Assembly (NCBI GenBank): GCA_965203445.1
Contig: OZ241883.1
Coordinates: forward strand, 2,304,001 to 2,368,000
Direction: 5' to 3'
Source of the DNA: Candidatus Oxydemutator sp.
GTDB lineage: Bacteria > Pseudomonadota > Gammaproteobacteria > Poriferisulfidales > Oxydemutatoraceae
DNA: 64,000 bases
The position numbers and the translations under genes are program-made. The notes below the pieces were generated by a model. The model was not told where the DNA came from, searched no databases, and worked only from the letters and a program-made list of their open reading frames with translations. Shown in pieces: positions 4,337-63,272 of this stretch. The first letter of the stretch is position 1. Each line of letters begins with the position of its first letter.

Positions 4337-4341
4337 CGGCG

Positions 4342-9975: not shown

Positions 9976-10244
9976 GGCACGACCACCGTTATCACCTCGC
10001 GCGGATACTCCATGCCGAGTTTCTCGCGCGCGCGCATCTCGACGTGGCCATAGGTTTGAAACGTGCCGCGCTCGAGTTGCAGGCGCTCCCATTCGACGCG
10101 CAATTCGTCGCGCTCGTACTGCAGGCGCTGCGACTCGATGAACTCGGCGCGCCCGTGGTGGCGCACGATGACGACGGCCAGCGCCGACAGCAGCGTCGCC
10201 GCCGCCAGCACGTGCGCGACGACGGCGTCGCGGCGCAAGATCAC
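9972..10244 (-). CDS. ftsL: Cell division protein FtsL
   Basis: About 90 aa: a TM helix, then a coiled coil (ERDELRVEWERLQLE...VEMRAREKLGM). Lies between rsmH and ftsI; GTG 10244 overlaps the rsmH stop. Confidence 0.9.
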   Translation of the reverse strand: MILRRDAVVAHVLAAATLLSALAVVIVRHHGRAEFIESQRLQYERDELRVEWERLQLERGTFQTYGHVEMRAREKLGMEYPREVITVVVP

Positions 10245-20527: not shown

Positions 20528-20553
20528 ACCCAGACTTCGTTTGTAACGGGATT

Positions 20554-20566
20554 GGGGGGGGGGGGG
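20554..20566 (-). repeat. Homopolymer C13 (G13 on plus), candidate phase-variation tract
   Basis: Minus strand reads ATG ACT A + C13 + AATCCCGTTAC. C12 or C15 would put ATG 20573 in frame with paralog 1. Confidence 0.8.
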
Positions 20567-20712
20567 TAGTCATTGGTTCAGCGAAGGGTGTAAGCGAACA
20601 AGCATTTTGTCATTTTGGGACAGGTTTTTGTCATCGCTATTTAACAATAATCCGAAAAAACGAAGTTCGCGCCGGCTGCTGCGGGCGCTGGCAGAAGCCT
20701 GCAAGAACTTCA
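20567..20712. repeat. Intergenic/5' cassette duplicated at 24518-24663
   Basis: Near-identical ~145 bp (tagtcattggttcagcgaagggtgtaag...gcctgcaagaacttca) upstream of paralogs 1 and 2. Confidence 0.9.
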
Positions 20713-24480: not shown

Positions 24481-24498
24481 ACTTCGTTTGTACAGAAA

Positions 24499-24517
24499 GG
24501 GGGGGGGGGGGGGGGGG
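24499..24517 (-). repeat. Homopolymer C19 (G19 on plus), candidate phase-variation tract
   Basis: Minus strand reads ATG ACT A + C19 + TTT CTG TAC AAA CGA AGT ATG. C17 or C20 restores the frame. Confidence 0.8.
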
Positions 24518-24660
24518 TAGTCATTGGTTCAGCGAAGGGTGTAAGCAGAGAAGCATTTTGTCATTCTGGGGCAGGTTTTTGTCATCGCTATTTAATAATA
24601 ATCCGAAAAAACGAAGTTCGCGCCGGCTGCTGCGGGCGCTGGCGGAAGCCTGCAAGAACT

Positions 24661-29610: not shown

Positions 29611-32600
29611 TCAGCGTCCGCTTGACCGGCAAATCCTCCCACGAGTGAGACTGCCGGATGGACGCCTTAATTGCCTCACCACACGCTCGAAATCAGATGA
29701 GACTAGAAATTCGTCAAGACTGACGTTCGCGCTTGGCATATAAAACTCCGTGCCCCTAAATCTGAGAATCCTGAACGAAGCCGGATTATTTGTGGCCTGA
29801 AGTTGCAAAACGGCAGCAAGCCTAAGAGCCTCGTTTGCGAAATCAGCATCCGCCGATACTATCGTGCCATCAGCATTCACGTCGCCGGTTATCATGAACA
29901 AACGGTCATTGTTACGGAACATCGGGCAGCTCCCATTATACAAATCCGTAGAGGCTCCCACCTCTCGGTAGTCTATGCAATAGTTCGCACTTGAATCACC
30001 GCAATCCGTGGACAATGGCCGCGCCGACAATATCGGCAGGTGGTTGCGATGCTGCAACAGCAGATACACGTCCTTGTTCGGCTCTATCTCGGCGTCAAAG
30101 CGCACCCCTTGCCGAGCCAACACATCCGTCGTCGTCGTCGCATTCTCGTTCACGCCTACTATGCTGCCGTCGGACAGAATCAAGCCTGCCTTTACGCCGC
30201 CTACGGGCACGCTGTCCGGATCCGCAGCACTCGGCGCGAAACCCGTGTTCACTACCCGCAACTCCAACAACATCCAGTCCACCACATTCGACGGCATGCC
30301 GTTTGCGTTGGCAACACCCTCTATACGAGGCACCGTCGTCGTCGCCGCGTGGTTCCAGGGCCTCACGCTATACGGTTGTACACGTGGCAGCGCTCGATTC
30401 AAAAAAGTGCCCATGTCGCCATCCGCGACACGATACGCCCCCTCCAAATACACGCCCGCGGCCACTACCAGACCTCGCTCGCTGCGGATGCCGACTTCGG
30501 CGAACTTCGGCTCTCCTATTTCCGCGGGGTGATCGCTGCCGCAGTTCGGGCAGTTCGTCAGGCGTAAACGAAAGCGTTCGCTATTTTCCTTCTCTACCTC
30601 GTCGGCCACAACCGACACCTGCACTCTCGCGGTGCCGTCCTCGCCCAACGTTATGCTCCCGGTGACCGGCAGCGCATTCACACTCACACCGGCGCTGCCG
30701 CCGCGATCTATCTCGAGAACTCCCCCCAGATCTGCGGACGTCAGACCTTCGGACGCGGTCGTAAGCTCATATTCCACCGTAACGGCCCAATTTGCGCCGC
30801 CGCTCAACGACACCGTGAAGGTCGCGGTCGCCCCTTCCGCCACCACCGCCGGCGCCGCCGCCACCGTCACCTGATCAAATTCGTTGGCCGCTATCGTCGT
30901 CATCGCCTCCAACGCCTCGGTGCTCAAACGAAGAGTACCCGCCGCGCCGGAAAGCATCGCGTTAGTCAGCTCCACCGAGAACGTCTCGGCCAATTCCGCT
31001 CCATCGTCGTCTTTTATTGCCACCTGGAACGACTGGGAAGAATTGCCCGCCGTGATGCTGACGTTGCCGTTGTTCGCTCCGTCAATGTCATCAAGCTCCG
31101 AAGTTCCTCCGCTTGTGTCCACGTTCCAATTCCAACTCGCAGTCACGCCCGACGGAAGGGCACCCGGCAGACTAACCGTGTACCTCGCTCTCGCGCCCTC
31201 CGAGACCATCGCGGAACCGGCGAACGCAGCCTTGACCGCGGGTTGCGATTCTCGTTGCGCCCTGATTTCGGTAGTGTTGCCAGACGGGAAAAAATCACTG
31301 ACGCCCTTCAACACCGGATAATCAAATGCCGTTCCAAAATCCCACGGGTTGTCGTCGTTCAAGGTCTCTATGCCCATGACCGTGCCCGTCGTATCGTCCA
31401 CGTTCAACTTATCCCAACCGGCGTAGATGCCGTCCGCCATCGTCGGGATATGCAAGTCGTAGGAAGTCTTGGGCGAATTGTCCGGCGACGGCGCGGTCGT
31501 GCCGCCGCAGCATGACGACTCCTCGCTGCGCTCCAGGTCAAAGTAGCTTGACTGAATCTCCATGGATGTACGATACCCTATCAAACCGCCTCTATGTGGC
31601 CCCCCGCCGGTCGGTTTCCCTATCGTGTAGCTGGCGCTCACTACGGAATTGCCCGTGTCGCTGCCTATCAAACCGCCCGCTCTTTCCCCCGCGCCGTGCA
31701 CCCTCACGTTGCTATAACCGGCGATCACAATTCCCCCGTTCATCTCGCCCACCAGACCGCCTACCGCCCAGGAACCGCTCACCGACCCGCCCGCCACGTA
31801 ACTCGCCGCTATCTTGCCGAAGTTATATCCCACCAGCGCCCCCACCCCCACGCTGTCGGGCGCACTCACGTTCACGTTCTTCATGCCTACCGAACGGATT
31901 ACGCCGTCGGCGCCCAAGATACCGAACAAGCCCACGTAATCAGAACGAGCACCGCTGCGCGTCAGATTCATATTCCTGATGACGTGGCCGTGACCTTCGA
32001 ATACGGCGTTGTAGCGGAGGGATTCCGGCTGCATGTTCCAACCATTCCACACGGACAACGCCTGTGCATACCCTCCGCCTATCTGCTTCTCCGCCCAGTT
32101 CGGCACGCTCGACAGGTCTATGTCGTTCAACAATTCGTAGCCCTTGCAGGTGTTCGGACAGGTCGCACTCTCATCAAAAGAGGGAAACGCCAAGTCATAA
32201 TCAGCCAGGTCTCCATCATCCACGCCGAGCCGGCCCTCGCCCCTCAAGTCATGGCGTATCGCCTCCAACTGCGTCGTCGTCCTGACCTCTATCAAACCAT
32301 CACCGTCGACGTCATAATCCATCCCCTCGCTCGAGGCGATGGTGCTTACGACCGCGGAACTGACGGTGCTCAAACGCAAACCGTCCGGGCCTTGCAAATT
32401 GCTTAAGCGCACGCGGAACGTCTCTCTTGGCTCCGGCGCCGCGTCCCCCGCTATCGCCACCCCGAAAACCACGCTGTCGGTGCCCGCCAGAACCACCTCA
32501 CCGCTCGTCGCCCCGTCAAAATCGAACGCATCGGCGTGGCCGTCACCGTCACCGGTCAATTCCACGGTCCAACTCATCGTAACCGGTTCGGCAGCGCGAC

Positions 32601-56600: not shown

Positions 56601-59600
56601 CGCCGAGCCGGCCCTCGCCTCTCAAGTCATAGCGTATCGCCGCCAACTGCGTCGTCGTCCTGACCTCTATCAGACCGTCATCGTTGGCGTCATAATCCAT
56701 CCCTCCGTTCGAGGCGATGGTGCTCACGACCGCGGAACTGACGGTGCTCAAACGCAAACCACCCAGGCTTGGCAAATCGCTCAAGCGCACGCGGAACGTC
56801 TCTCTCGGTTCCATCGCCTCGTCCCCCGCTATCTCCACCCTGAAAACCGCGCTGCCGGTGTTGACGAGCACCACCTCGCCGCTCGTCGCCCCGTCAAAAT
56901 CAGCCGCATCGGCGTGGCCGTCACCGTCACCGGTCAATTCCACGGACCAACTCACCGTCACCACGTCGGCAACGCCATTACGAAGTTCCACCGCGTACGT
57001 CACCGCAGAACCCTCCGTTATCACCTCGTCGCCCCGCTGCGACAACGTCGCCAATACCAGCGGCTGCCTCTGGTGCTGCGCGCGGATAGCGGTGGTATTG
57101 CCGGCGGGAAAACGTTCGCTTTGGCCGTGCAACACCGGGTACTGAAAAGGACTCCCGAAATCCCACGGACTGTCGTCGTTCAACGTCAAAACGCCCATCA
57201 CCGTGCTCGACGTATCGTCCACGTTCAGCCGATCCCAACCGGCGTAGATGCCGTCCGCCGCCGTCGGGCTGCGCAACTGGACGGTCGTCTGCGGCGTCTC
57301 GTCCGGCGACGGCGGGTTATGGCCGCAGCATGACGACTCCTCGCTGCGCTCCAGGTCAAAGTAGCTTGACTGAATCTCCATGGATGTACGATACCCTATC
57401 AAACCGCCTCTATCTGGCCCCCCGCCGGTCGGTTTCCCTATCGTGTAGCTGGCGCTCACTACGGAATTGCCCGTGTCGCTGCCTATCAAGCCGCCCGCTC
57501 TTTCACCCGCGCCGTGCACCCTCACGTTGCTATAACCGGCAATCACAATTCCCCCGCTCATCTCGCCCACCAGACCACCTACCGCCCAGGAACCGCTTAC
57601 CGACCCGCCCGCCACGTAACTCGCCGCTATCTTGCCGAAGTTATATCCCACCAGCGCCCCCACCCCCACGCTGTTGGGGGCACTCACGTTCACGTTCTCC
57701 ATGCCTACCGAACGGATTACGCCGTCGGCGCCCAAGATACCGAACAAGCCCACGTAATCAGAGCGAGCACCGCTGCGCGTCAGATTCATATTCCTGATGA
57801 CGTGGCCGCGACCTTCGAATACGGCGTTGTAGCGGAGGGATTCCGGCTGCATGTTCCAGCCATCCCACACGGACAACGCCTGTGCATACCCTCCGCCTAT
57901 CTGCTTCTCCGCCCAGTTCGGCACGCTCGACAGGTCTATGTCGTTCGACAATTCGTAGCCCCTGCAGGTGTTCAGACACGTCGCACTCTCATCGAAAGAG
58001 GGAAACGCCAAGTCATAATCAGCCAGGTCTTCATCATCCACGCCGAACCGGCCCTCGCCCCTCAGGTCATGGCGTATCGCCTCCAACTGCGTCGTCGTCC
58101 TGACCTCTATCAGACCGTCATCGTTGGCGTCATAATCCATCCCCCCGTTCGAGGGGATGGTGCTTACGACCGCGGAACTGACGGTGCTCAAATACAAATT
58201 ATCCGGGCCTTGCAAATTGCTTAAACGCACGCGGAACGTCTCTCTCGGCTCCATCGCCGCGTCCCCCGCTATCTCCACCCTGAAAACCACGCTGTCGGTG
58301 TTGACCAGAACCACCTCACCGCTCGTTGCCCCGTCAAAATCAGCCGCATCGGCGTGGCCGGCAACGCCGCCGGTCAATTCCACGGACCAACTCATCGTAA
58401 CCGGTTCGGCAGCGCGACTACCCAGTTCCACCGCGTACGTCGCCGCAAAACCCTCCACGACCACCCTGCGGCCTCGCTGCGACAACGTCGCCAATACCGG
58501 CGGCTGCCTCTGGCGCTGCACCCGGGTAGCGGTGGTATTGCCGGCGGGATAACGTTCGCCTTGGCCATGCAACACCGGGTACTGAAGACTACTCCCGAAA
58601 TCCCACGGGCTGTCGTCGTTCAACGTCAAAACGCCCATGACCGTGCCCGTCGTATCGTCCACGTTCAGCCGATCCCAACCGGCGTAGATGCCGTCCGCCG
58701 CAATCGGGGCGCGCAACTTGGCGGGCGTCTGCGGCGTCTCGTCCGGCGACGGCGCGGTCGTGCCGCCGCAGCATGACGACTCCCCGCTGCGCTCGCTGTC
58801 AAAGTAGCTTGACTGGATCTTCACCGCGGACCCACGATGCCCTATCAAACCGCCTCTATGAGAACCCCCGCCGGTCGGTTTCCCTACCGTGTAGCTGGCG
58901 TTCACTACGGAGCTGCCTTCGCCGGTGCCTATCAAACCACCCGCTCTTTGCCCCACGCCGTGCACCGCCACGTCGCTATAACTGGCAATCACAATTCCCC
59001 CTTTCATCTCGCCCACCAAACCGCCTACATCCCAGGAACCGCTCACCGTCCCGCTCACCGCGTAACTCGCCGCTATCTTGCCGTAGCTGACCCCCACCAA
59101 CGCGGCTACCCCCTCGCTGTCGGGTGCGTTCACGTTCACGTTCTCCATGCCTACGGAACGAATTACGCCGGTGTTGCCCAAGGTGCCAAACAAGCTCACG
59201 TAATCATAGCGGTTACCGCTGTCGCGCGTTATCTTCATATTCCTGATGACGTGGCCGTTGCCTTCAAAAACGCCTTCGTAGCGGATGGACGTCGGGTACT
59301 GGTTCCAAGATCCCGTCCACGCGGGCGACGCCGGCGAATACCCCCCGCCTATCGGCGTCCAGTTCCCCACGCTCGACAGGTCCACGTCGTTCCACAATTC
59401 GTAGCCCCTGCAGGTTGTGGCGCAACCCATGTTCGGCCGCGCGCTCGGGAACGCGGCGGTGTACGACGTGACGCGCGCCTGGTCGTCGGGCATACCGTCG
59501 CCGTCCAAATCCCAGCGCATCGCGTCCAACTGCCCGACCGTGCGCACGTCTATAAGATCATCGCCGTCGTCGTCGTAACTGACGCCGCCGTCGTCGTCCA

Positions 59601-61899
59601 CTATCGTCACCGTGAGCGCGCTCTTGTCCGGATCTATAGTCACCCTCTCGGGAGCAGACGCCTGCGAAACAAAGCCCAAATTCACGGTGAACGTCTCCGC
59701 ACCCTCGGCGACGTCGTCATTGATCAGAACCACGCTGCCACACGAGCTGTCGACGCTTCTGCCAAAGGGGCCTATCATCACCGTGGCGGAAGACACGTAG
59801 TCGTCGCCCGCCACGGCGCTGCCGTCCGCCACATTCAACGCCAAACTGAAGTCACTTCTCTCTATCAGCCCGCCAGTGCTCGGATCCGTGATTGCGACGC
59901 ACACGGAAGCCGACGAATCAACGCCCTCGGTCACCGTCAGCGTGGTCTGCTCGAAACCGATTGTGATTCCGTCGTCTTCCGCTATTGTGACCTCCGCCAC
60001 CGCGGGATTGATGGTGACTCTTTCCAGCGTCTGGCCCGGGGGCGCGGTCAAGTCCAGAAAAAAGCTCTCAGCGTCTTCACGTATCGCATCGTCCGTGATC
60101 TCAACAGCGAAGCATTGACGCCGAGTCCTATCCGAGAACGGCCCGACGTCCTGCTGATTGATCGAAGTAAAGTCGTTGGTGCCGGCGGTGCCCGGCCTGG
60201 TCGAGAGCTTCATCCCGATCCGCCGATCCAGAGGCTGCGTACTCAACGGCGTGGTTGCATCCACGCATACAGAATCACCACGAGCGTCCTCATCTATACT
60301 ATAGGAGGTTCTTGCAAAACCGACTACAACCGGGTCGTCGTCCTCTATCGTCACCGTCGCCATCTGCGTGGATTCCGAATAACCGGCGCTCACCAGCCGC
60401 AACGGGATGGTCTCCGCTTCCTCCGGTATCGCGTCGTCAATGATGCTTATCGTTACATCGGCCCGCGGGGCGCCCGACGCATTCAACGAAAACACGACCG
60501 ACGACGTCGACACGTCGTAATGAAAGAACGTGGCGCCTCCCGGCAGCGTCAGCATCGTGCCGTCGTCCAACGCCGCCACCGTGCCGGTGACCGAAAAATC
60601 GCTTATCCTCAGCGCTTCGTCCGAAAGCCGCACCGTCACCGTGACGACGGCGCCGGAACTTTCCACCGCCGAATACATCGAACTGGTGAAAACCACCGGC
60701 GGCCCCGTCAACTCGGCCGCCACCGCGCCGCGCTGCCGCGCGACCGAAAAACTGCTCGCCTGCAACACCGGATACTGCATCGAAGTGCCGAAGTCCCACG
60801 GATCGTCGTTGCCGTCCACGCCGGTCCTGGTGCTGCCGTCCACGTCTATATTCCAGTTCGCGTAGATGCCGCTGTAGGTCGTCGGCGTCTGCAACGACGC
60901 GGTGTCGGTGCCAATCGCGCCGCTGCCGGCGCTTTCGGCCAAGCCGCTGGCCTCGGTATCCCAGTAGGAGTCCTTATAGTTGTCGCCGCCGGACATAGTT
61001 GTACTCCACCCCACCAGACCGCCCGCGTTGGTCGTGCCGGTGACTTGGCCCGCCGCGTAACTGGCTATTATTCTTTCTCTACCCATAGCCGCGTTCCCTC
61101 CCAACAAACCGCCCGCCCCATTGCCACCGCGAACGTCTACTATCGCGTAGCTGGCCTTGATCCTCACGCCAACTGAAAACGCCAGGTACCCCACCAAACC
61201 ACCTGTGTTAGACGTGCCGGATACGTCGCCTCCCGTTACGTGGCTGGTTACTACCGTTCCGGTGCTGACGTATCCCACTAACGCGCCAACCCACTGCCGC
61301 CCGGTTACGTCCACGTCCTCCATACCGACGTTTCTGATGCCCGGAGTGTCTTCCCCGGAGTGATCGGCACTGACCTTGAAGCCGAAGTGGCCGAATAAAC
61401 CCACGCGATCAGAGGTTGGGCGATTGATAAACAGGTTTTCAATGACGTGCCCCCTGCCGTCAAAGTCGGCAATATAAGGATCGTCCGCACTGCCTATCGG
61501 CTGCCAGCCTGCGCCGTCGTTCCGATAGAGGTCGTCGCTGCGGGTGCTGGTGCTGCCGGTGTTGAAATCCAGGTTGTTCAACAACTCGTAGCCGTTGCAC
61601 GAAGACGCGGTGCACGTAGTGGCAAAGGCCGCGGCGTAGTTCGCGGCGTTGTCCTGGGAATCCGCGGCGCCGTCGCCGTTCAAATCCCAGCGTATCGCGT
61701 TTAATTGTTGCAGCGTGGTTACGTCAATCAGTCGGGGGTCGTTCTGCGTCTGCGCCGCGAGCGGTTGCGGGGTCAGCACCAGCAGCGACGCGACAAAGAG
61801 CGACGTCCAGGCAAGCGGTTCTGAACGCGCGGAACACCGGCGCACGCCCAGGCCCATACTCCGCTTGTAGAGGAAGGGACAGGTAATAGAAAATGCCAT
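29611..61899 (-). CDS. Giant (~10,760 aa) secreted GLUG/Calx-beta repeat adhesin-like protein with C-terminal dockerin-like domain
   Basis: Uninterrupted 32.3-kb ORF. Start placed at ATG 61899 (MAFSITCPFLYKRSMGLGV...; alternative ATG 61857). Signal peptide ...LLVLTPQPLAA|Q, a head module, 3 Calx-beta-like domains, 20 units of ~480 aa, and the shared tail. Confidence 0.9.
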   Translation of the reverse strand: MAFSITCPFLYKRSMGLGVRRCSARSEPLAWTSLFVASLLVLTPQPLAAQTQNDPRLIDVTTLQQLNAIRWDLNGDGAADSQDNAANYAAAFATTCTASSCNGYELLNNLDFNTGSTSTRSDDLYRNDGAGWQPIGSADDPYIADFDGRGHVIENLFINRPTSDRVGLFGHFGFKVSADHSGEDTPGIRNVGMEDVDVTGRQWVGALVGYVSTGTVVTSHVTGGDVSGTSNTGGLVGYLAFSVGVRIKASYAIVDVRGGNGAGGLLGGNAAMGRERIIASYAAGQVTGTTNAGGLVGWSTTMSGGDNYKDSYWDTEASGLAESAGSGAIGTDTASLQTPTTYSGIYANWNIDVDGSTRTGVDGNDDPWDFGTSMQYPVLQASSFSVARQRGAVAAELTGPPVVFTSSMYSAVESSGAVVTVTVRLSDEALRISDFSVTGTVAALDDGTMLTLPGGATFFHYDVSTSSVVFSLNASGAPRADVTISIIDDAIPEEAETIPLRLVSAGYSESTQMATVTIEDDDPVVVGFARTSYSIDEDARGDSVCVDATTPLSTQPLDRRIGMKLSTRPGTAGTNDFTSINQQDVGPFSDRTRRQCFAVEITDDAIREDAESFFLDLTAPPGQTLERVTINPAVAEVTIAEDDGITIGFEQTTLTVTEGVDSSASVCVAITDPSTGGLIERSDFSLALNVADGSAVAGDDYVSSATVMIGPFGRSVDSSCGSVVLINDDVAEGAETFTVNLGFVSQASAPERVTIDPDKSALTVTIVDDDGGVSYDDDGDDLIDVRTVGQLDAMRWDLDGDGMPDDQARVTSYTAAFPSARPNMGCATTCRGYELWNDVDLSSVGNWTPIGGGYSPASPAWTGSWNQYPTSIRYEGVFEGNGHVIRNMKITRDSGNRYDYVSLFGTLGNTGVIRSVGMENVNVNAPDSEGVAALVGVSYGKIAASYAVSGTVSGSWDVGGLVGEMKGGIVIASYSDVAVHGVGQRAGGLIGTGEGSSVVNASYTVGKPTGGGSHRGGLIGHRGSAVKIQSSYFDSERSGESSCCGGTTAPSPDETPQTPAKLRAPIAADGIYAGWDRLNVDDTTGTVMGVLTLNDDSPWDFGSSLQYPVLHGQGERYPAGNTTATRVQRQRQPPVLATLSQRGRRVVVEGFAATYAVELGSRAAEPVTMSWSVELTGGVAGHADAADFDGATSGEVVLVNTDSVVFRVEIAGDAAMEPRETFRVRLSNLQGPDNLYLSTVSSAVVSTIPSNGGMDYDANDDGLIEVRTTTQLEAIRHDLRGEGRFGVDDEDLADYDLAFPSFDESATCLNTCRGYELSNDIDLSSVPNWAEKQIGGGYAQALSVWDGWNMQPESLRYNAVFEGRGHVIRNMNLTRSGARSDYVGLFGILGADGVIRSVGMENVNVSAPNSVGVGALVGYNFGKIAASYVAGGSVSGSWAVGGLVGEMSGGIVIAGYSNVRVHGAGERAGGLIGSDTGNSVVSASYTIGKPTGGGPDRGGLIGYRTSMEIQSSYFDLERSEESSCCGHNPPSPDETPQTTVQLRSPTAADGIYAGWDRLNVDDTSSTVMGVLTLNDDSPWDFGSPFQYPVLHGQSERFPAGNTTAIRAQHQRQPLVLATLSQRGDEVITEGSAVTYAVELRNGVADVVTVSWSVELTGDGDGHADAADFDGATSGEVVLVNTGSAVFRVEIAGDEAMEPRETFRVRLSDLPSLGGLRLSTVSSAVVSTIASNGGMDYDANDDGLIEVRTTTQLAAIRYDLRGEGRLGVGDGDLADYDRAFPSFDESATCLNTCKGYELLNEIDLPSDENWEPIGGGARTGFSNDVLPEEHRYNAVFEGNGYVIRNMKMVYGNEHTASRYDFVGLFRALGGDGVIRNVGLANVNVSVSRNSIQTGALAAANYGGKVAACYVAGGSVKGAWGVGGLVNSNVGGTIIASYADVTVWFPGSEAGGLVGGNASGGKIIASYSLGNVGLTGANWPISEPRHIGGLVGNNTAASDLIENSYFDTDSSGLSSGGTNVSATTVKTTRELRSPVTAEGIYAAWGGLNVDDTTGTVMGMETLNDDNPWDFRTNLDYPVLRGISARYPNGNTTGVLAQRTAADVLVTLSQDEGRKLEGEAAEYAVTLGAYGAGAVTMSWSVELTGTGLGHADALDFDGATSGEVVLVGTDSAVFRITIRDDDASETTETFRVRLSNPRGLGGLRLSAASSAVVSVIERSDEIDYDTDGDTLIEVATPLQLSAIRHDLGGAGLTGVGSANVLAYLAAFPSFDQRRTCPTTCTGYELSNDLDLSGISNWKPIGGGLTQAPWGTPPPDRRYQAVFEGNGHVISNVTIRSANNAADRFDNVGFFGAVGVTGRIRNVGLNNVHTDMAGSSLGAGALVGYNAGKVAACYVVGDVRQVRGGWSLGALVGRLDGGVVIASYADVRVHQWPPGRNVGGLIGAVENGGIVSASYAISRLSRLHGLQGSPSGGLVGDYISGTIQTSYFDEGRSGQSACCGSNKPTPDNAPRTSSQLRAPTMAAGTIYEGWDRLNVDDTSSTVMGVLTLNDDSPWDFGTGFDYPVLRGVSARYPRGNTTATRAQRRGQPPVLATLSQRGRKVVVEGFAATYAVELDGHSDDVVTMSWSVELTGDGDGHADAADFDGATSGEVVLAGTDSAVFGVAIAGDAMDEPRETFRVRLSNLQGPDNLRLSTVSPAVVSTIASSEGMDYDVDGDGLIEVRTTTQLAAIHHDLRGEGKIGVDDEDLADYDLAFPSFDESATCPNTCKGYELLNDIDLSSVQNWTPIGGGYSPASPAWTGSWNQYPTSIRYEGVFEGNGHVIRNMKITRDSGNRYDYVSLFGTLGNTGVIRSVGMENVNVNAPDSEGVAALVGVSYGKIAASYAVSGTVSGSWDVGGLVGEMKGGIVIACYSDVAVHGVGQRAGGLIGTGTGDSIVSASYTVGKPTGGGSHRGGLIGHRESTVKIQSSYFDSERSGESSCCGGTTAPSPDETPRTSVQLRAPTMADGIYAGWDKLDVDGVDQGGDDDLNDDGPWDFGTSFDYPVLRGVSARYPDGNTTAIRVQRRGQPPVLATLSQRTIGAIAEGSAAEYVVELDSHGASPVTLSWSVELTGDGDGHADAADFPATAGTITLVDTDSVVFRVAIAGDEAEEPRETFRVRLSNVQGADNLRVSTVSSAVVSTIASSGGMDYDANDDGLIEVRTTTQLAAIHYDLRGEGRLGVDDEDLADYDLAFPSFDESATCPNTCKGYELLNDVDLSSVRNWTPIGGGITQGSPGWSSWQQRPLHISYGAVFEGNGHVIRNMRIRRDGERDDYMGLFSILSSTGVIRNVGMEGVNVSAPPSVWVGALAGYNFGKIAASYAVNGSVRGFWATGGLVGGVGGGIVIASYSAVSAHGVANAQRVGGLIGNDDGGGSIVSASYTIGVPSGGDPHRGGLVGYRQLFQEQPSLVIPLEIQSSYFDGERSGESSCCGHNPPSTDRDTRKTSAELRTPIAADDFYTGWDKLDVDGVDQNGDDDLNDDSPWDFGTGFDYPVLRGVSARYLDGNTTATRVQRRGQPPVLATLSQRTIGATPEGSAVEYAVELDGRGADPVTLSWSVELTGVGAGHADAADFTEATRGTVTLVNTDSAVFRITVGDDDVSEVPETFRVRLSNVQGPDNLRLSDASSSVVSSIAFGGTNYDADGDNLIEVATTSQLSAIRYDLGGVGLAGVSSANEADYLAAFDLFDEAKTCPSTCTGYELSNDLDLSDADWTPIGGATRRSRVGPDNSNTPPLDGRYQGGFEGNGHVIRNMRVRSPSQNWHYVGLFGALGEAGWVRGVGLRDVVVDVRGGYSGSIGAGALVGHSYGRVAASYVSGGSVSGGWEVGGLTGANGGTLIASYADVSVAATDRSLGGLVGSLSGSGVVSASYSVSRVVRSTNSRTVGGLVGGRSGSSVLSASYFDSGRSGEERCCGERWPSPDDAPKTSNDLRTPTTAAGTIYEGWDRLNVDDTSSTVMGVLTLNDDSPWDFGTVFDYPVLVFGGSAGTRMARRTSQQQAQPAVTLTPTLGGSVTVSRGGIASYVVSLPGALPPGASAHWDWSVGGDEVGDDDFVGTTAGSVVIGSGALSASFSLRVRDDDVTESSKVMVVTLSNAEITGAPARVSLSVPVSSVMTTIEASGMMDYDVDDDTLIEVATTSQLAAIRHDLGGVGLAGVSGDANRAAYLAAFPSFGRRQTCPSTCTGYELSADLDLSSVEPHPGPGWTPLGGGVEVQDFPGDYYTAVFEGNGHVISNLRVNRDEEWYQVGLFGAVSASGTIRNVGLRNARVEVAASGPGQSPFVGALVGDNRGKVAASYVSGGRISSGYAVGGLIGINSGRVVASYADVAVYAFSTVGGLVGQAAGPASVVSASYSVGRVTGIFPPIGGLIGSGFRTSVVESSYFDKERGVQSDCCGSKASHQLRTPTTAAGTIYAGWDKLNVDDVDQGRDGDLNDDSPWDFGSAFDYPVLVFGGATETRAARRISQQETLALLVPTLAGSETVSEGGTASYVVRLPVVLPPGASARWDWAVGGGEVGIADFVGAITGTVVVGSGASSASFSLRVRDDAAPESSEVLVVTLTGARLTGAPAHVGLGVPAASVRTIIEASSGTDYDDDADGLIDVETTSQLAAIRYDLGGAGLAGVSDANRDDYLAAFPFFDERLTCPSTCTGYELSADLDLSGVEPAPGPGWTPLGGGIPRDDSPVDYYTAVFEGNGHVISNLRMARSGQWYHMGLFGAVGADGRIRNVGLRNARVDLGSDGNHIGALVGTNEGEVAASYVSGGRISGELYVGGLIGNHNGRLVASYADVEVHADASNAGGLVGVAGFASVVSASYSVGKTTGGSLPSGGLIGNMPVGAVVESSYFDAGRSGQDRCCGFNAPDPDRTSKTSSELRTPTTAAGTIYAGWDKLNVDGVDQGDDRDYNDDSPWDFGSVFDYPVLVFGGATETRAARRLSQQRALALLVPTLAGSETVSEGGTASYVVRLPMVLPPGVSASWDWAVGGGEVGAADFVGATTGNVAIASGAVSASFSVRVRDDDEPELSEVLVVALTGARLTGAPAHVSLGVPVSVRTTIEAGGEIDYDFDNDTLIDVETTSQLAAIRYDLGGAGLAGVSDANRDDYLAAFPVFGVEQTCPSTCTGYELSADLDLSSVEPAPGPGWTPIGGGGDALLDDDYYTAVFEGNGHVISNMRVVRADGRLSHTGLFGAVSAVGTIRNVGLRNAWVSVVAHSTYIGALVGRNEGQVVASYVSGGRISGVWAVGGLIGGNFGRLVASYANVEVHTAEGANVGGLVGEAGGASVMSASYSVGKLTGATAGGLIGQRLAGAVVESSYFDTGRSLQTSCCGTAPGDTDNVAPKTSNQLRAPTTAAGTIYAGWDKLDVDGVDQGGDDDLNDDSPWDFGSVFDYPVLVFGGATDTEAARRTLQQEAQPEISLAVTFTGSATVSEGGTASYVVRLPMALPPGVSARWDWSVSGGEVGIADFVGATTGNVAIASGAVSASFSVRVRDDDEPELSEVLVVTLTGARLTGAPAHVSLGVPASVRTTIEASGAIDYDFDNDTLIEVATTSQLAAIRHDLGGVGLAGVVGKANRDDYLAAFPAFGMEQTCPTTCTGYELSADLDLSSVEPAPGPGWTPIGGGVNALLDDDYYTAVFEGNGHVISNMRVARDGRFSHTGLFGAVSATGTIRNVGLRNARVSVDADHSTFIGALVGLNRGEVVASYVSGGRISGVWGVGGLIGVNYGRLVACYADVEVHAGGGTVGGLVGEVRAPSVVNASYSVGKPTGNDAVGGLMGQFVGGVVESSYFDVERSLQASCCGTDPQNLDNVAPRMSSELHVPTTTAGTIYAGWDKLDVDGVDQGDDGDLNDDSPWDFGSVFDYPVLVFGGATDTEAARRTSQQETQPEVSLAVTFAGSAAVSEGGTASYVVSLPGALPAGVSASWSWAVGGGEVGADDFVGTTAGSVVIASGAVSASFSLRVRDDLVTELAEVMVVTLTGAKITGAPARVSLGVPVSVRTTIEASGKIDYDVDDDNLIEVTTMSQLSAIRYDLGGVGLAGVGSANEADYLAAFPLYDVVQTCPSTCTGYELSADLDLPSGQNWDPIGDDANRYQAVFEGNGHVISNMEIRAPDNGNYHYRGLFGSLGAGGTIRNVGLSDVHIELRGDSFQTGALAGASRGKIAASYVAGGLINGVWRVGGLVGTLYTNATMIASYTDVEVRARNEENDGSAAGGLIGTAESGSIVSASYAIGRTTAVGDEDGGLIGERDSQARIQKSYFDTGRSGQSDCCGQNTRQSDSGTGRTSAQLRAPTMADGIYAGWDKLNVDGVDQNGDDDLNDDSPWDFGTGFDYPVLRGVSARYPDGNTTAIRAQRRGQPPVLATLSQRTSGTTPEGSAVEYAVELDGRGAIPVTLSWSVELTGVGAGHADAADFTEVTRGTVTLVNTDSAVFRITVGDDDESEVPETFRVRLSNPRGLERLRLSDASSSVVSSIAFGGTNYDADGDNLIDVATTSQLSAMRYDLGGVGLAGVSSANEADYLAAFDLFDEAKTCPSTCTGYELSADLDLSDADWTPIGGATRQSRVGPDNSNTPPLDGRYQGGFEGNGHVIRNMRIRSPSQNWHYVGLFGALGEAGWVRGVGLRDVVVDVQRGYSGSIGAGALVGYSYGRVAASYVSGGSVSGGWAVGGLTGVNDGTLIASYADVSVAATDRSLGGLVGSLSGSGVVSASYSVSRVVRSTNSRTVGGLVGSRSGSSVLSVSYFDSGRSGEERCCGERWPSPDDAPKTSAELRTPTTAAGTIYEGWDRLNVDRVDQSGDGDYNDDSPWDFGTSFDYPVLRGVSARYPDGNTTAIRAQRRGQPLVLVTLSQRTSGAIAEGSAVEYAVELDGRGAIPVTMSWSVELSGVGPGHAEAADFSGVTRGQVVLINTDSAVLEVQIIEDGTPERAERFRVRLSNLLAPDNLRLSAPGSAVVSVIASHGMNYDLDGNNLIDVRTTTQLSAIRYDLRGAGLAGVDGGDLATAAYQEAFPFFDEDETCPDGCRGYELLNDVDLSSVASGTNWEPIGDDTNRYQAVFEGNGHVISNMEIRAPDNDDYHYRGLFGFLGAGGTIRNVGLSDVHMELRGASSQTGALAGASRGRIAASYVVGGLVNGVWRVGGLVGTLHTSATMIASYTDVEVRARNENDQGNSAGGLIGVAESGSIVSASYAIGRTTAVGDQDGGLIGERDSQARIQKSYFDSERSGESSCCGGTTAPSPDETPRTSVQLRAPTAAAGTIYAGWDKLNVDGVDQSGDDDLNDDSPWDFGTGFDYPVLRGVSALYPGGNTTATRVQRQSQPPVLVALSQRGDEVTAEGSAAEYAVELDGHSDDVVTMSWSVELTGVGDGHADATDFPTTMGTITLVDTDSAVFRVAIAGDEALEPRETFRVRLSNVQGADNLHLSTVSSAVVSTIASSGGMDYDANDDGLIEVRTTTQLSAIRYDLRGGGRLGVGDGDLPDYDLAFPSFDESATCPNTCKGYELLNDMDLSSVQNWTPIGGGYSPASPAWTGLWNAFPESIRYEGVFEGNGRVVRNMRISRASRYDYVGLFGTLGSAGVIRSVGMVGVSVDVPPGSGSGGAAALAGVSYGKIAASYAVSGTVSGSWAVGGLIGEIIGGTVIAGYSDVAVHGGGVRAGGLIGSGTGDSIVSASYTVGIPTGGGSHRGGLIGHRESTVKIQSSYFDSERSGESSCCGGTTAPSPDETPRTSVQLRTPTMADGIYAGWDKLDVDGVDQGGDDDLNDDGPWDFGTSFDYPVLRGVSARYPDGNTTAARVQRRGQPPVLATLSQRTIGAIAEGSAAEYVVELDSHGASPVTLSWSVELTGDGGGHADAADFPATAGTITLVDTDSVVFRVAIAGDAALEPRETFRVRLSNVQGADNLRVSTVSSAVVSTIASSGGMDYDANDDGLIEVRTTTQLAAIHYDLRGEGRLGVDDEDLADYDLAFPSFDESATCPNTCKGYELLNDVDLSSVRNWTPIGGGITQGSPGWSSWQQRPLHISYSAVFEGNGHVIRNMRIRRDGERDDYMGLFSILSSTGAIRNVGMEGVNVNASPSVWVGALAGYNFGKIAASYAVNGSVRGFWATGGLVGGVGGGIVIASYSAVSAHGVANAQRVGGLIGNDDGGGSIVSASYTIGVPSGGDPHRGGLLGYRQLFQEQPSLVIPLEIQSSYYDGERSGESSCCGHNPPSTDRDTRKTSAELRTPIAADDFYTGWDKLDVDGVDQNGDDDLNDDSPWDFGTSFDYPVLRGVSARYLDGNTTAIRAQRRGQPPVFATLSQRTTGTIAEDSAMEYVVALDGHGATPVTLSWSVELTGDGDGHADALDFDGATSGEVVLVNTDSAVFRVAIAGDEALEPRETFRVRLSNLQGPDSLRLSTVSSAVVSTIASSGGMDYDANDDGLIEVRTTTQLAAIRYDLRGEGRLGVGGEDLADYDLAFPSFDESATCPGTCKGYELLNDVDLSGMAWEPIGGGARGLSGKVLPEEHRYNAVFEGNGYVIGNMEVLARNDIWHFVGLFRALGAGGVIRNVGLANVNVEVHISSTLTGALAGANYGGKVAASYVAGGTVRGGLGVGGLVAGNGGTIIASYTDVTVDAGNSRVGGLVGENYSGGKIIASYSSGRVRRTLPRLSVTPYLGGLVGENRAASTAIESSYFDGDRSGLSSGGTNVPSSSLRTSRELRSPTAATGIYAAWAGLNVDDTTGTVMGVLTLDDDNPWDFGTGFDYPVLRGVSVRYLGGNTTATRVQRRGQPPVFVTLSQRGDEVTAEGSTATYAVELGGGAADVVTMSWSVELTGVGDGHADAADFPATTGTITLVDTDSAVFGVAIAGDAMEEPRETFRVRLSNLQGADNLRLSTVSSAVVSTIASSGGTDYDANNDGLIEVRTTAQLAAIRYDLRGGGRLGVGDGDLPDYDVAFPSFDESATCPNTCKGYELLNDVDLSSVRNWTPIGGGITQAGEGAPANTRYEAVFEGNGHVISSMTITRSGATGYYHVGLFGALGAFGMIRSVGLVDVNVNISATDSVNTGGLVGTGYGTIAASYVVGKSAREAAPVRGYSVVGGLVGRMIGGVVIASYTDVPVIAQTAAGGLVGAMNDASIVSASYAIGRVSVQRSNGRIGGLVGERAGNTDEIQASYFDSGRSGQSSCCGHNPPSLDETPRTSEDLRTPIAADGIYTGWDELDVDGLHDDAPWDFGTSFDYPVLRGASARYPDGNSTSIRVQQRRQTPVLATLSQRTVEAIAEGSAAEYAVELDDHGATPVTLSWSVELTGVGAEHADAADFAGATSGEVVLAGTDSAVFSVTIEDDDVSEPRETFRVRLSNPRGLDRLRLSVASSAVVGTIERSDGIDYDDDGDNLIEVATTSQLSAIRYDLDGDGMPDEQAYVTTYTAAFPRAELNMGCAATCKGYELSNNLDLSSVENWTPIGGGYSPASPAWTGSWNQYPTSIRYEGVFEGNGHVIRNMKITRDSGNRYDYVSLFGTLGNTGVIRSVGMENVNVNAPDSEGVAALVGVSYGKIAASYAVSGTVSGSWDVGGLVGEMKGGIVIACYSDVAVHGVGQRAGGLIGTGEGSSVVNASYTVGKPTGGGSHRGGLIGHRGSAVKIQSSYFDSERSGESSCCGGTTAPSPDETPQTPAKLRAPIAADGIYAGWDRLNVDDTTGTVMSVETLNDDSPWDFGSSLQYPVLHGQGERYPAGNTTAIRVQRQRQPPVLATLSQRGRRVVVEGFAATYAVELGSRAAEPVTMSWTVELTGDGDGHADAFDFDGATSGEVVLAGTDSVVFGVAIAGDAAPEPRETFRVRLSNLQGPDGLRLSTVSSAVVSTIASSEGMDYDVDGDGLIEVRTTTQLEAIRHDLRGEGRLGVDDGDLADYDLAFPSFDESATCPNTCKGYELLNDIDLSSVPNWAEKQIGGGYAQALSVWNGWNMQPESLRYNAVFEGHGHVIRNMNLTRSGARSDYVGLFGILGADGVIRSVGMKNVNVSAPDSVGVGALVGYNFGKIAASYVAGGSVSGSWAVGGLVGEMNGGIVIAGYSNVRVHGAGERAGGLIGSDTGNSVVSASYTIGKPTGGGPHRGGLIGYRTSMEIQSSYFDLERSEESSCCGGTTAPSPDNSPKTSYDLHIPTMADGIYAGWDKLNVDDTTGTVMGIETLNDDNPWDFGTAFDYPVLKGVSDFFPSGNTTEIRAQRESQPAVKAAFAGSAMVSEGARARYTVSLPGALPSGVTASWNWNVDTSGGTSELDDIDGANNGNVSITAGNSSQSFQVAIKDDDGAELAETFSVELTNAMLSGAAGTLRLSTEALEAMTTIAANEFDQVTVAAAPAVVAEGATATFTVSLSGGANWAVTVEYELTTASEGLTSADLGGVLEIDRGGSAGVSVNALPVTGSITLGEDGTARVQVSVVADEVEKENSERFRLRLTNCPNCGSDHPAEIGEPKFAEVGIRSERGLVVAAGVYLEGAYRVADGDMGTFLNRALPRVQPYSVRPWNHAATTTVPRIEGVANANGMPSNVVDWMLLELRVVNTGFAPSAADPDSVPVGGVKAGLILSDGSIVGVNENATTTTDVLARQGVRFDAEIEPNKDVYLLLQHRNHLPILSARPLSTDCGDSSANYCIDYREVGASTDLYNGSCPMFRNNDRLFMITGDVNADGTIVSADADFANEALRLAAVLQLQATNNPASFRILRFRGTEFYMPSANVSLDEFLVSSDFERVVRQLRRPSGSLTRGRICRSSGR
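31320..33560. repeat. Near-identical copy of ~57140-59380 (modules A+B; offset 25,818 bp)
   Basis: Shadow ORFs 33019 and 58837 begin identically, and the same loop sequences recur (SPASPAWTGSWNQYPTSIRY; AEKQIGGGYAQALSVW). Boundaries approximate. Confidence 0.85.
36960..38800. repeat. Near-identical copy of ~51220-53060 (end of A-type module plus module E; offset 14,262 bp)
   Basis: Shadow ORFs 38776/53038 and 37807/52069 share the same offset, and the loop GITQGSPGWSSWQQRPLHISY occurs in both. Boundaries approximate. Confidence 0.85.
41490..42880. repeat. Near-identical copy of ~49970-51370 (module F; offset ~8,487 bp)
   Basis: Shadow ORFs 42392 and 50879; loop ATR[RQ]SRVGPDNSNTPPLDGRY occurs in both. 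Boundaries approximate. Confidence 0.85.
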
Positions 61900-63198: not shown

Positions 63199-63272
63199 TG
63201 GAGCGGGCGAAGGGAATCGAACCCTCCTCACCAGCTTGGGAAGCTGGGGTAATGCCACTATACTACGCCCGC
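63199..63272 (-). tRNA. tRNA-Gly(CCC)
   Basis: 74 nt, GCGGGCGTAGTATAGTGG...CCAGC-TTCCCAA-GCTGG...GGTTCGATTCC...CGCCCGCTCCA. Anticodon CCC, encoded CCA end. Confidence 0.96.

Follow-up and report, generated by a model that had tools for sequence, protein, structure and literature searches.

The locus and its genes

The window, by which we mean the whole 64,000-nt stretch of DNA that was analyzed, carries a giant gene and three smaller paralogs, N1, N2, and N3 (Table 1). The longest open reading frame of the giant gene runs from 29611 to 62070 on the minus strand, with 10,819 codons from a TTG and zero internal stops, and this bears out the first-pass annotation, which had described a single frame of about 10.8 kaa. 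The same annotation ended the gene at 61899, which is indeed an in-frame ATG (codon 58), but comparison with the homologous starts of N2 and N3 points to the ATG of codon 72 (nt 61857). The gene is flanked by leuA, a GNAT gene, the dcw cluster, and moaA (20 flanking ORFs scanned), with no secretion genes beside it among these scanned flanks and no outer-membrane export system seen within the window. Between 16 and 30 kb, promoters and terminators were predicted no more often than by chance (4 vs. 3.9 and 14 vs. 13.5); one promoter-like site in that interval lies upstream of N1.

The giant gene product is a real and, by its signal-like N-terminus, secreted bacterial protein of roughly 10,750 residues, in which 21 complete beta-helix domains alternate with Calx-beta spacers. 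It is very acidic (D+E 1321 vs. K+R 714) and rich in Gly and Ser. The motif [YF]DxDxDxLI[ED]V occurs 20 times at a spacing of 466-490 aa (1398-1470 nt), PWDF[GR] occurs 21 times, and FEGxGxV[IV] occurs 20 times, its counterpart FDGRGHVI being found once, in the head module. These counts and intervals agree with the head module plus 20 units at ~1.4-kb spacing proposed earlier, module number and order resting on a single assembly with long near-identical repeats. When the 20 units were aligned, mean column identity was 61%, with ~90 invariant columns, far above chance, and the predominance of Gly, hydrophobic, and aromatic residues in these columns suggests structural roles.

Table 1. Features of the giant gene and its neighboring paralogs (positions in the window).
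Feature	Position	Strand	Remarks
Probable CDS of the giant gene	29611-61857	-	ATG at codon 72, ~10,748 aa; start placed from the homologous N-terminal ends of N2 and N3
Putative Sec-type signal peptide (MGLGVRRCSARSEPLAWTSLFVASLLVLTPQPLAA/Q)	61753-61857	-	shape, and conservation in N2 and N3
Head module M01	60751-61740	-	GLUG beta-helix, divergent; short loop, FDGRGHVI; Glug match at E 0.0013 (19.4 bits)
Calx-beta domains between M01 and M02	59581-60750	-	PF03160, best stretch aa 698-827
M02, type A	58138-59580	-	loop GGYSPASPAWTGSWNQYPTSIR at 59281-59346; unit chosen for the AF2 model
M03, type B	56698-58137	-	
M04, type C	55243-56697	-	without the CC motif
M05, type D	53785-55242	-	same cassette present in N3
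M06, type A	52348-53784	-	mosaic: first half M20-like, second half M16-like
M07, type E	50881-52347	-	97-100% nt identity with M17 (alignment columns 1-400)
M08, type F	49432-50880	-	
M09-M12, types G1-G4	43801-49431	-	four tandem copies, mutual aa identity 72-82%
M13, type H	42394-43800	-	shortest loop, DDANR; search query
M14, type F	40951-42393	-	
M15, type H	39526-40950	-	
M16, type A'	38086-39525	-	
M17, type E	36616-38085	-	
M18, type C'	35185-36615	-	
M19, type I	33763-35184	-	
M20, type A	32320-33762	-	99-100% nt identity with M02 over beta-helix and linker (columns 81-360)
M21, type B	30877-32319	-	Calx-beta of the N1-N3 kind
Extra Ig-like/Calx-like domain at the array-tail junction	30487-30876	-	PF03160 28.8 bits on 29614-31200; weak LapA, DUF7927, and PKD matches
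Conserved 291-aa tail	29614-30486	-	~200-aa beta-rich domain outside Pfam, then dockerin-like end; common to N1-N3 and many unrelated secreted proteins
Dockerin-like tail segment (GDVNADGTIVSADADF..., second repeat degenerate)	29671-29886	-	profile of family A3 matches solved dockerins, best E 2.6e-4
Paralog N1, 1464 aa	24661-29055	-	own signal peptide, different N-terminal region, one unit, tail 99% identical to that of the giant
Paralog N2, 1256 aa	20710-24480	-	head module, one unit, tail
Paralog N3, 1387 aa	16364-20527	-	head module, Calx-like domain, one type-D unit, tail

Fold of the repeat unit

Each unit consists of a complete 330-aa right-handed beta-helix domain of GLUG type and, after it, a single Calx-beta domain. 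In the beta-helix, an N-cap carrying DxDxDG and a conserved Cys pair leads into about six GGLxG rungs and a conserved C-terminal region that ends in PWDFG...YPVL. A profile of the module matched the IgA1 protease of S. pneumoniae in the PDB (6xjb, E 2.7e-5). The AF2 model of M02 reached pLDDT 80-94 across the helix and fell below 50 at residues 286-358, within the conserved 90-aa region after the helix; its best Foldseek match was 3N6Z, the beta-helix of a Bacteroides "putative IgA1 protease" (E 7e-7 over 305 columns), with 7UVL at E 8.4e-4. Among ESM Atlas clusters, 24 of the 30 nearest fell in one set with the three best matches, and PF07581 (Glug) is found on 10%, 92%, and 71% of the members of those three. 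Scanned singly, 9 of 23 units matched PF07581 at E <= 0.1 (best 8.8e-8); two units gave 15.2 and 19.4 bits against a curated cut-off of 20.5, most single-unit scores lying under this value, and the relative P0006 scored 42.6 bits. As every unit holds a full GLUG-class beta-helix, the protein is, as the first-pass annotation had argued, built differently from adhesins in which one tip domain sits on a uniform stalk.

The spacer, previously called Calx-beta-like, can be named with more confidence. Over the first 5000 aa PF03160 scored 162.5 bits (E 4.9e-48; cut-off 27), 13 of 23 units scanned singly matched it at E <= 0.1, and Foldseek placed the fold with CBD1 of NCX (2DPK, TM 0.77). Residues D429 and E433 (A1 numbering) of the Calx-beta motif DDxxxExxE(T)F are invariant in all 20 units, and we take them to correspond to the calcium sites of NCX.

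Cassette types and their variability

The loop types and their order given earlier, A B C D A E F G G G G H F H A' E C' I A B from the N- to the C-terminus, were reproduced exactly. Types A, B, D, and E, making up 9 of the 20 units, have loops containing Trp. The first-rung loop is expanded here, to 19-26 residues against a mode of 9 in the family, and long aromatic-rich loop insertions are found in 14 of 21 modules compared with 34 of 427 across the wider family. No other indel is as large as the loop after PIG, which also ranks with the most variable segments; singled out earlier as the hypervariable site, it is one of about eight equally variable patches, the other seven or so recurring at fixed positions in each rung. 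The "constant frame" proposed around it is, in the beta-helix, 81% identical in pairs of the same type and only 49% identical in pairs of different types; same-type loops are identical or nearly so across copies. The loop type therefore marks an entire beta-helix cassette rather than a lone insert, and there are nine distinct cassette types.

Variability was mapped along the sequence, by position within the repeating rung. Entropy was high at the offsets next to GGLxG (H 1.76 and 1.72), lower in the middle of the rung (1.19), and lowest in the motif itself (0.37; Mann-Whitney p 1.2e-6), and the big first-rung loop occupies the same rung offset as the flanking variable sites (H 1.97). This phasing fits variable ridges that would run along the helix and border the invariant GGLxG strand on both sides. 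Selection focused on the loop, which had been put forward as something that dN/dS could reveal, was not detected: dN/dS, computed among the units of this array, was nearly the same for the loop (0.74) as for Calx-beta (0.73), with a helix value of 0.52, and all regions lay at 0.46-0.74 and therefore below 1. The single exception was one loop comparison at 1.15, a value derived from 27 synonymous differences. Since dN/dS shows no focus on the loop, much of the variation between modules may be relaxed constraint. No reverse transcriptase was found among the 20 scanned flanking ORFs and loops of the same type are identical, both of which disfavor the loops as targets of a diversity-generating retroelement.

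Paralogs and recombination

N1-N3 lie downstream of the giant gene and all share its ~290-aa tail. With two further paralogs on the same contig, the genome has six family members. The paralogs, the dockerin-like end of the tail, and the frequency of such arrays in other genomes are additions to the first-pass annotation. The distribution of near-identical stretches among units and genes (Table 1) shows a mosaic history of duplication and gene conversion that includes exchange with paralogous genes. Judged by these alignments, the cassettes are shuffled, recombining both relative to their own caps and spacers and between genes.

The C-terminal tail

The tail has 56 homologs, among them unrelated secreted enzymes and adhesin-like proteins, some with peptidase or glycosidase domains; of the 54 homologs encoded elsewhere than in the window, 41 have only 34-70 aa between the end of the domain and their C-terminus. 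Dockerins of the PF00404 type have two tandem repeats of ~22 residues, each with a DxNxDGxxxxxD loop. The consensus of the tail family has both loops, and the copy in the window keeps the first loop while the second is degenerate. A Pfam scan of this copy gave no match, Dockerin_1 included, and its single sequence returned nothing meaningful from the PDB. A fold search with the tail model gave no match at E <= 0.001, the best being the X-module-dockerin chain 4u3s_B (prob 0.80, E 0.06, not significant). Like the type II XDoc of cellulosomal scaffoldins, the tail would pair a beta-sandwich with a double calcium-loop module at the C-terminus, and its family profile matches dockerins; it differs from XDoc systems in its degenerate second calcium loop and in its host, a gammaproteobacterium and not a cellulolytic Firmicute. 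No cohesin partner was seen within the window. We also considered the tail as a cohesin and rejected this, as PF00963 sits elsewhere in the tail homologs that carry it.

Relatives and comparable systems

The giant protein is a member of a widespread, little-studied family and not a one-off. A search with a single module (M13) retrieved 16,819 representative proteins at E <= 0.001. At least two near-full modules, and at most 12, were present in 145 of the best 150 representatives, which include P0001, P0075, P0106, and P0139 from this same genome. Five or more modules per ORF were found in 13 of 75 genomic loci, all outside the genome of the window and with a best identity of 44%; these include loci from Dehalococcoidia, Chloroflexota, Ca. 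Oxydemutatoraceae, Ca. Porisulfidus, and Teredinibacter. Other genomes contain arrays of 11 near-full modules and an ORF of 7,250 aa that is open at both ends of its locus. In relatives, the module is combined with cadherin, fibronectin-III (FN3), and LRR domains, and proteins matched by the head region span 1330-3795 aa. These multi-module GLUG arrays of uncultured bacteria have the same module in tandem repetition and are nameless in the literature searched, but strict Calx-beta alternation together with the tail is limited to the nearest relatives (P0001-P0003, P0007, P0015, P0016, and P0019), and the 21 modules reported here exceed those of every protein among the matches listed. The module family is very large in sequence data and almost absent from the literature searched, where five papers name GLUG motifs, domains, or repeats or PF07581, and where nothing relevant on a GLUG array of a sponge symbiont, or on a giant Calx-beta protein of one, was found. 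GLUG domains are described as of "unknown function" in a passage of one report (PMC9723798).

Among solved structures, the N-terminal domain of M26 IgA1 protease (6XJB, 7JGJ, and 7UVL) and BACOVA_03286 of B. ovatus (3N6Z) have the same fold and GGLxG rung motif. The domain described here is no protease accessory; it is present in 21 copies, each followed by Calx-beta, and domain-family scans of the giant protein found no M26 catalytic domain. One report states that the beta-helix-containing N-terminal domain of the pneumococcal enzyme binds IgA1 Fab (PMC7695701).

A further comparison is with fibrillar or "periscope" adhesins and giant RTX adhesins of Gram-negative bacteria (LapA and MpIBP type), which are likewise giant, repetitive, calcium-binding, and extracellular, have Ig- or Calx-like spacers, and owe their copy number in part to recombination between repeats. 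In such adhesins the stalk is uniform and the ligand-binding domains sit at one of its ends. Those of the RTX class lack a Sec signal, end in C-terminal RTX nonapeptide repeats, and have type I secretion genes (ABC, MFP, and TolC) adjacent to them, whereas the protein described here has a Sec-like N-terminus, no flanking secretion genes, and a 330-aa beta-helix in each repeat. An RTX/type I identity was therefore rejected on the N-terminus, the non-secretion flanks, and Pfam scans that contained no RTX family. Fibrillar adhesins combine a repeated stalk and an export signal with an established adhesive domain and a cell-wall or membrane anchor. The giant protein has the first two, in the form of more than 20 Calx-beta domains and a signal-like N-terminus; GLUG, the candidate for the adhesive domain, has no proven adhesive role, and for the anchor the dockerin-like tail is the lead.

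A probable multivalent surface fiber and its alternatives

Our preferred reading, which we hold with moderate confidence, is that of a giant, very acidic fiber that an uncultured high-GC gammaproteobacterium exports through Sec to its exterior, with the beta-helices as candidate binding domains; it is probably a surface fiber that binds many targets at once. As to the host lineage, the LeuA encoded in the flank is 87% identical to a protein from a gammaproteobacterial MAG. From the N- to the C-terminus, the arrangement is a putative signal peptide, head beta-helix, several Calx-beta domains, twenty beads of one beta-helix and one Calx-beta domain each, Ig-like domain, and tail with a dockerin-like end. 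Docking of the fiber to a surface or matrix partner is the probable role of the tail. Calcium would stiffen the Calx-beta domains and their junctions, and the protein would therefore stand out from the cell as a rod. If the beta-helices are binders, the fiber would present many binding surfaces of several kinds, and its role may be adhesion to host matrix, glycans, or other cells. Three observations bear on such a role: the Fab binding of the related IgA1 protease domain, the phasing of the variable sites, and the cadherin, FN3, and LRR domains found with the module in relatives.

The most serious competitor holds that the protein is a hydrated, calcium-binding layer that shields the cell or sets the distance to its neighbors, with drift and gene conversion accounting for the differences between modules and no distinct ligands involved. 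The model would be the giant halomucin of Haloquadratum, a protective coat. We find this doubtful, though it deserves real weight. The uniformly high dN/dS, with a Calx-beta spacer as variable as the loop, is what such a coat would give, as is the very acidic, Gly- and Ser-rich composition; the near-identity of same-type loops argues against ongoing diversification; and a figure legend compares a region that includes a CDS with GLUG motifs with a halomucin homolog (PMC4330952). Yet the nine cassette types stay distinct despite frequent gene conversion, the variable positions are phased along the helix rather than scattered, and the long aromatic-rich insertions are rare across the wider family.

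Two other explanations carry less weight. Right-handed beta-helices often have lyase or hydrolase activities, and each unit could be an enzyme acting on polysaccharides, a lyase or hydrolase with a fold of the pectate-lyase class, making the whole a multi-catalytic degrader; dockerins usually tether enzymes, and the tail is also found on proteins with peptidase and glycosidase domains. We judge this very improbable, as searches of Pfam, NCBIfam, and the PDB matched no enzyme family, the closest relatives of known structure are domains without catalytic function, and the make-up of the invariant columns points to structure instead. It is also rather improbable that the size is partly artefactual, that is, that the coding sequence is real but in-register mis-joining of repeats inflated the number of units or scrambled their order, or paralogs were merged. 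Intragenic exact repeats of 382 and 347 nt are separated by one mismatch (730 nt together), units are 97-100% identical over 0.8-1.2 kb, and the genome has six family members. The open frame proves nothing about the assembly because in-register chimeras would stay in frame. Against an artefact, the window proteins lie on a contig of 2,378,814 nt that would be hard to assemble across such repeats without long reads, each unit is unique somewhere along its length, and long arrays, including the ORF open at both locus ends, are also present in other genomes.

If the multivalent fiber is real as assembled, it would be among the largest bacterial proteins and a clear case of a giant surface protein whose repeat is a full candidate binding domain and not a spacer. 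Beyond this, the gene family could serve as a cassette library, in which the ~35 beta-helix cassettes of six or more paralogs, representing nine or more types, are re-assorted by gene conversion independently of caps and Calx-beta, so that the displayed binding surfaces vary. We regard this as unlikely on present evidence. Its logic would be comparable to that of pilE/pilS and vlsE, built here from 330-aa beta-helix domains. The cassette shuffling observed in this locus also provides a model of repertoire evolution that can be tested.

The host of such a library may be an animal-associated symbiont, and identifying the ligands of the beta-helices would then give a handle on host attachment or evasion by uncultured symbionts. 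Among species-representative genomes, arrays were found under names suggestive of animals (Ca. Poriferisocius, Ca. Porisulfidus, and Teredinibacter), lineages that we take to be symbionts. Porisulfidus is also named in the abstract of a sponge genome note.

Reading Frame and Repeat Periodicity

The giant gene is a single open frame of 10,819 codons counted from a TTG, interrupted by the terminal stop only. The first-pass annotation had placed a 10.8-kaa protein at 29611..61899, and while the uninterrupted frame stands, the upstream end proposed there is an ATG at codon 58. We prefer the ATG at codon 72, since the starts of two short downstream paralogs, N2 and N3, align with it and since it is followed by a signal-like N-terminus (a basic segment, then a hydrophobic one, then LAA/Q), so that the product is likely to be of ~10,748 aa with a predicted Sec-type signal. 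The regular spacing of a head module (M01) and 20 units (M02 to M21), also proposed from the sequence, was borne out by three motif anchors, with [YF]DxDxDxLI[ED]V occurring 20 times at a spacing of 466-490 aa, PWDF[GR] 21 times and FEGxGxV[IV] 20 times, the head module carrying FDGRGHVI once. Across the 20-unit alignment mean column identity is 61% with ~90 invariant columns, and any two units share between 43% and 92% identity.

Coordinates of the features discussed (window positions)
Feature	Position	Strand	Remark
Giant gene, open frame	29611-62070	-	TTG to terminal stop
ATG at codon 58	61899	-
ATG at codon 72	61857	-	preferred start
N-cap motif DYDxDxDGLIEV, example	59545-59580	-
Vicinal Cys-Cys, example	58750-58760	-
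Tail of giant protein	29614-30486	-	last 291 aa
N1	24661-29055	-	1464 aa
N2	20710-24480	-	1256 aa
N3	16364-20527	-	1387 aa
N1 to N3, tandem	16364-29055	-
618-nt identity, N1 copy	24671-25288		3' end
618-nt identity, giant-gene copy	29621-30238		3' end
Four-gene block	16.4-62.1 kb		G+C 54-66%
Negative GC skew	16000-62100	+	strong
tRNA-Gly(CCC)	63199-63272
dcw cluster	1-11000	-

Composition of the Repeating Unit

Taken together, the matches described below show each unit to be made up of an N-cap, a GLUG beta-helix (PF07581), a conserved C-terminal region, and a Calx-beta domain. When the 20 units were turned into a profile, it matched the beta-helix of IgA1 protease from Streptococcus pneumoniae (6xjb, E 2.7e-5), while the last third of the profile matched the Calx-beta domains of Na/Ca exchangers. 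An AlphaFold model of M02, built on an alignment of 23 paralogous units (mean pLDDT 74.9), contains a beta-helix at residues ~10-265 (block pLDDT 74-94 outside the loop), a first-rung loop in coil at residues 79-100 (pLDDT 60-68) and a Calx-beta sandwich at residues 362-475 (pLDDT ~71-88); the conserved region ending in PWDFG...YPVL (residues 286-358) fell below pLDDT 50 and gave no usable model. The nearest Foldseek match was 3N6Z, the beta-helix of a Bacteroides ovatus "putative IgA1 protease" (E 7e-7, 305 columns), with NCX CBD1 (TM 0.77 on the target) and the IgA1 protease 7UVL coming next. Of the 30 nearest ESM Atlas clusters, 24 belonged to one set with the three best matches, in which PF07581 is carried by 10%, 92%, and 71% of the members. 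Pfam gave a weaker signal on single units, with GLUG in 9 and Calx-beta in 13 of 23 at E <= 0.1, and the GLUG scores of the two units scanned alone lay under the Pfam cut-off.

The N-cap opens with an acidic, DxDxDG-like DYDxDxDGLIEV motif, possibly a candidate calcium site at the Calx-to-helix junction, and holds two invariant cysteines in every unit. Behind the helix, a vicinal Cys-Cys follows SYFDxxRSG in 18 of the 20 units, being absent from M04 and M18. The acidic motif of the Calx-beta domain is invariant (D429, E433), and the giant protein as a whole is strongly acidic (1321 D+E vs. 714 K+R).

Variation Among Units

The loops after PIG had been described as hypervariable insertions in a constant frame, a description that holds only in part. 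Their types and order from M02 to M21 (A B C D A E F G G G G H F H A' E C' I A B) are exactly as first read, and the loop is indeed the largest indel and among the most variable stretches (mean column entropy 1.97 vs. 1.2-1.3 for the helix), however, at least seven further 8-residue windows are as variable (H 1.9-2.5) and loop type is tied to the whole cassette. Pairs of the same type are 75% identical in the loop and 81% in the beta-helix, against 25 and 49% for pairs of different types. The variable element is the beta-helix cassette as a whole, present in nine types, and not a loop carried by an unchanging scaffold. From the loop list, Trp is present in the loops of 9 of the 20 units, namely those of types A, B, D, and E. 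The variable windows are phased on the GGLxG rungs, with high entropy in the five residues that follow the motif (H 1.76) and the seven that precede it (H 1.72), compared with H 0.37 in the motif and 1.19 in the rung middle (Mann-Whitney p 1.2e-6), and in the first rung the big loop takes up the "before" position. Judged by register, such phasing should align the variable sites as ridges along the beta-helix, which is the arrangement sought by the structural check proposed in the first-pass annotation.

Nei-Gojobori estimates over all unit pairs gave dN/dS values of 0.46 for the cap, 0.74 for the loop, 0.52 for the helix, 0.58 for the linker, and 0.73 for the Calx-beta domain. Within types, loop dN/dS was 0.04-0.42 for B, C, F, and H, 0.81 for A and 0.83 for G, and the type E pair had no loop differences. 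Comparison among the long Trp-rich loops (A, B, E) was the only one to yield a ratio above 1 (1.15; 27 synonymous and 94 non-synonymous differences), and region-wise dN/dS over unit pairs of the giant gene gave no clear sign of loop-focused positive selection.

Paralogs and History of the Array

N1, N2, and N3 lie in tandem immediately downstream of the giant gene on the same strand, each with a predicted signal peptide and one beta-helix/Calx-beta unit, and share with the giant protein a C-terminal region of ~560 aa. The N-terminal region of N1 (560 aa) differs, Calx-beta being its sole match. Outside the window, the same 2,378,814-nt contig encodes P0001 (4087 aa), which has eight units, each with a Calx-beta domain, plus the tail, and P0106 (2932 aa), whose head region is 77% identical to that of the giant protein.

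Sliding-window nucleotide comparison revealed the units to be mosaics. M02 and M20 are 99-100% identical over beta-helix and linker (alignment columns 81-360) and 77-84% in the cap; M06 tracks M20 and then changes over to M16; M07 and M17 are 97-100% identical as far as the Calx-beta domain, from where M07 tracks M13. Two pairs of two-unit blocks (M02-M03/M20-M21 and M06-M07/M16-M17) look like segmental duplications. Cassette exchange crosses gene borders as well: the single unit of N3 joins a type-D cassette 92-97% identical in nucleotides to that of M05 (columns 81-240) with a cap and Calx-beta domain of other kinds. At their 3' ends, N1 and the giant gene have 618 identical nucleotides in common, within an overall similarity of 1282 nt at 95.6%, and this identity points to recent gene conversion between neighboring genes.

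Relatives of the Module

A full HMMER scan of one unit against 1.84 billion representative proteins recovered 16,819 proteins at E <= 0.001, 7,267 at E <= 1e-10 and 1,469 at E <= 1e-30. Among the best 150 representatives, which include four proteins of the same genome (P0001, P0075, P0106, and P0139), 145 have at least two near-full modules and none has more than 12. Counted from the glycine of PIG up to the phenylalanine of FxGxG, the loop segment is nine residues long in 189 of the 427 modules of these 150 and reaches at least 19 residues in only 34, vs. 14 of 21 in the giant protein; the expanded loop is therefore lineage-specific. Within the same 150, only the nearest relatives have the tail and alternate strictly between module and Calx-beta. 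Other relatives combine the module with cadherin, fibronectin-III, LRR, or He_PIG domains.

Species-representative genomes contain 120 stretches coding for a relative, from which 75 loci were kept (best identity 44%; the window's own genome is not among them). With ORFs delimited stop to stop, one or more near-full modules are present in an ORF of at least 250 aa at 55 of these 75 loci, and at 13 of them a single ORF has at least five. Five loci (L029, L045, L004, L023, and L034, the last from Teredinibacter) reach 6-11 modules per ORF, including 11 in a Dehalococcoidia ORF of 7,250 aa cut at both locus ends (L029) and 11 in a 6,074-aa ORF of a Ca. Oxydemutatoraceae genome (L045). Array-bearing or related organisms in this set are mostly Dehalococcoidia and other Chloroflexota, with further relatives in Ca. 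Poriferisocius and other Acidimicrobiia, Acidobacteriota, Latescibacterota, Ca. Porisulfidus, and Cellvibrionales including Teredinibacter, and more distant ones in gut Clostridia and Prevotella.

A Conserved Tail

The tail of the giant protein, which also closes N1 to N3, matched no Pfam family. A word-based protein search recovered 56 homologs. Apart from N1 and N2, these comprise 54 unrelated secreted proteins that bear peptidase, glycosidase, PKD, FN3, cohesin, or FG-GAP domains, 41 of which have the tail domain ending 34-70 aa short of the C-terminus. The family consensus has two terminal DxNxDG loops, the second being degenerate in the window's copy, and the family profile matches solved dockerins (best E 2.6e-4). 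The AlphaFold model is mediocre (pLDDT 66.5, pTM 0.73) and its best fold match, 4u3s_B, the X-module-dockerin chain of a type II cohesin-dockerin complex, is not significant (E 0.06, prob 0.80). The nearest ESM Atlas clusters are recorded mostly as Bacteroidota. Our reading of the tail as a beta-sandwich followed by a dockerin-like docking module is a lead and not a demonstration.

Possible Function

Architecture, folds, cassette types, and recombination history are matters of observation; as to function, we lean modestly toward a multivalent surface fiber of several specificities, as the first-pass annotation had proposed. To judge by its signal peptide and conserved Cys pairs, the protein would be extracellular; its acidic junction motifs and Calx-beta domains point to a rod of beads stiffened by calcium, and its dockerin-like tail to docking onto a partner. 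The beta-helices would most likely be the binding domains, by analogy with the pneumococcal IgA1 protease, where a beta-helix-containing N-terminal domain is described as contacting Fab (PMC7695701). Partner domains of adhesion type in relatives favor the same reading, as do the phased ridges and aromatic-rich insertions, which resemble an expected recognition surface, and the adhesion proposed for GLUG proteins in a paper that calls the motif itself "of unknown function" (PMC9723798).

The main rival, unlikely though worth taking seriously, is a passive protective coat whose variation would reflect drift and gene conversion. It is supported by the uniformly high dN/dS and by a possible link to halomucin, suggested by one figure legend (PMC4330952); the phasing of the variable sites and the long aromatic-rich loops weigh on the other side. 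That the paralog family serves as a gene-conversion cassette library varying displayed binding surfaces seems rather improbable. We see only a slim chance that the array is in part an assembly artefact, which would be compatible with the other readings: the longest exact repeat within the giant gene is 382 nt, joined to one of 347 nt to make 730 nt with one mismatch, and as in-register mis-assembly would keep the frame open, ORF continuity alone is no proof of module count, but the size of the contig argues for a long-read assembly. An enzyme array is very improbable, no match to an enzyme having appeared in any library searched.

The array does not make up a new category, as surface proteins of giant size and repetitive build are familiar and databases are rich in the module. 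In the literature searched, where the GLUG terms turn up in only five papers, we found no array in which complete GLUG beta-helix repeats alternate with Calx-beta, nor one with expanded first-rung loops, with nine types of cassette exchanged between six or more paralogous genes, or with a dockerin-like tail.

Genomic Setting

The four-gene block is lower in G+C than its flanks (66-74%) and may be an acquired island or reflect amino-acid composition. It also shows strongly negative GC skew on the + strand. Bounding it are leuA with a GNAT gene and moaA, the flank LeuA sharing 87% identity with a protein named "MAG: Gammaproteobacteria bacterium," and a tRNA-Gly(CCC) gene lies nearby. No secretion-system genes were found in the 64-kb window. 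Further downstream is the dcw cell-division/cell-wall cluster (an FtsW-like gene, Mur ligases, a class B PBP, and FtsL), a region with many long spurious ORFs on both strands due to its high G+C.
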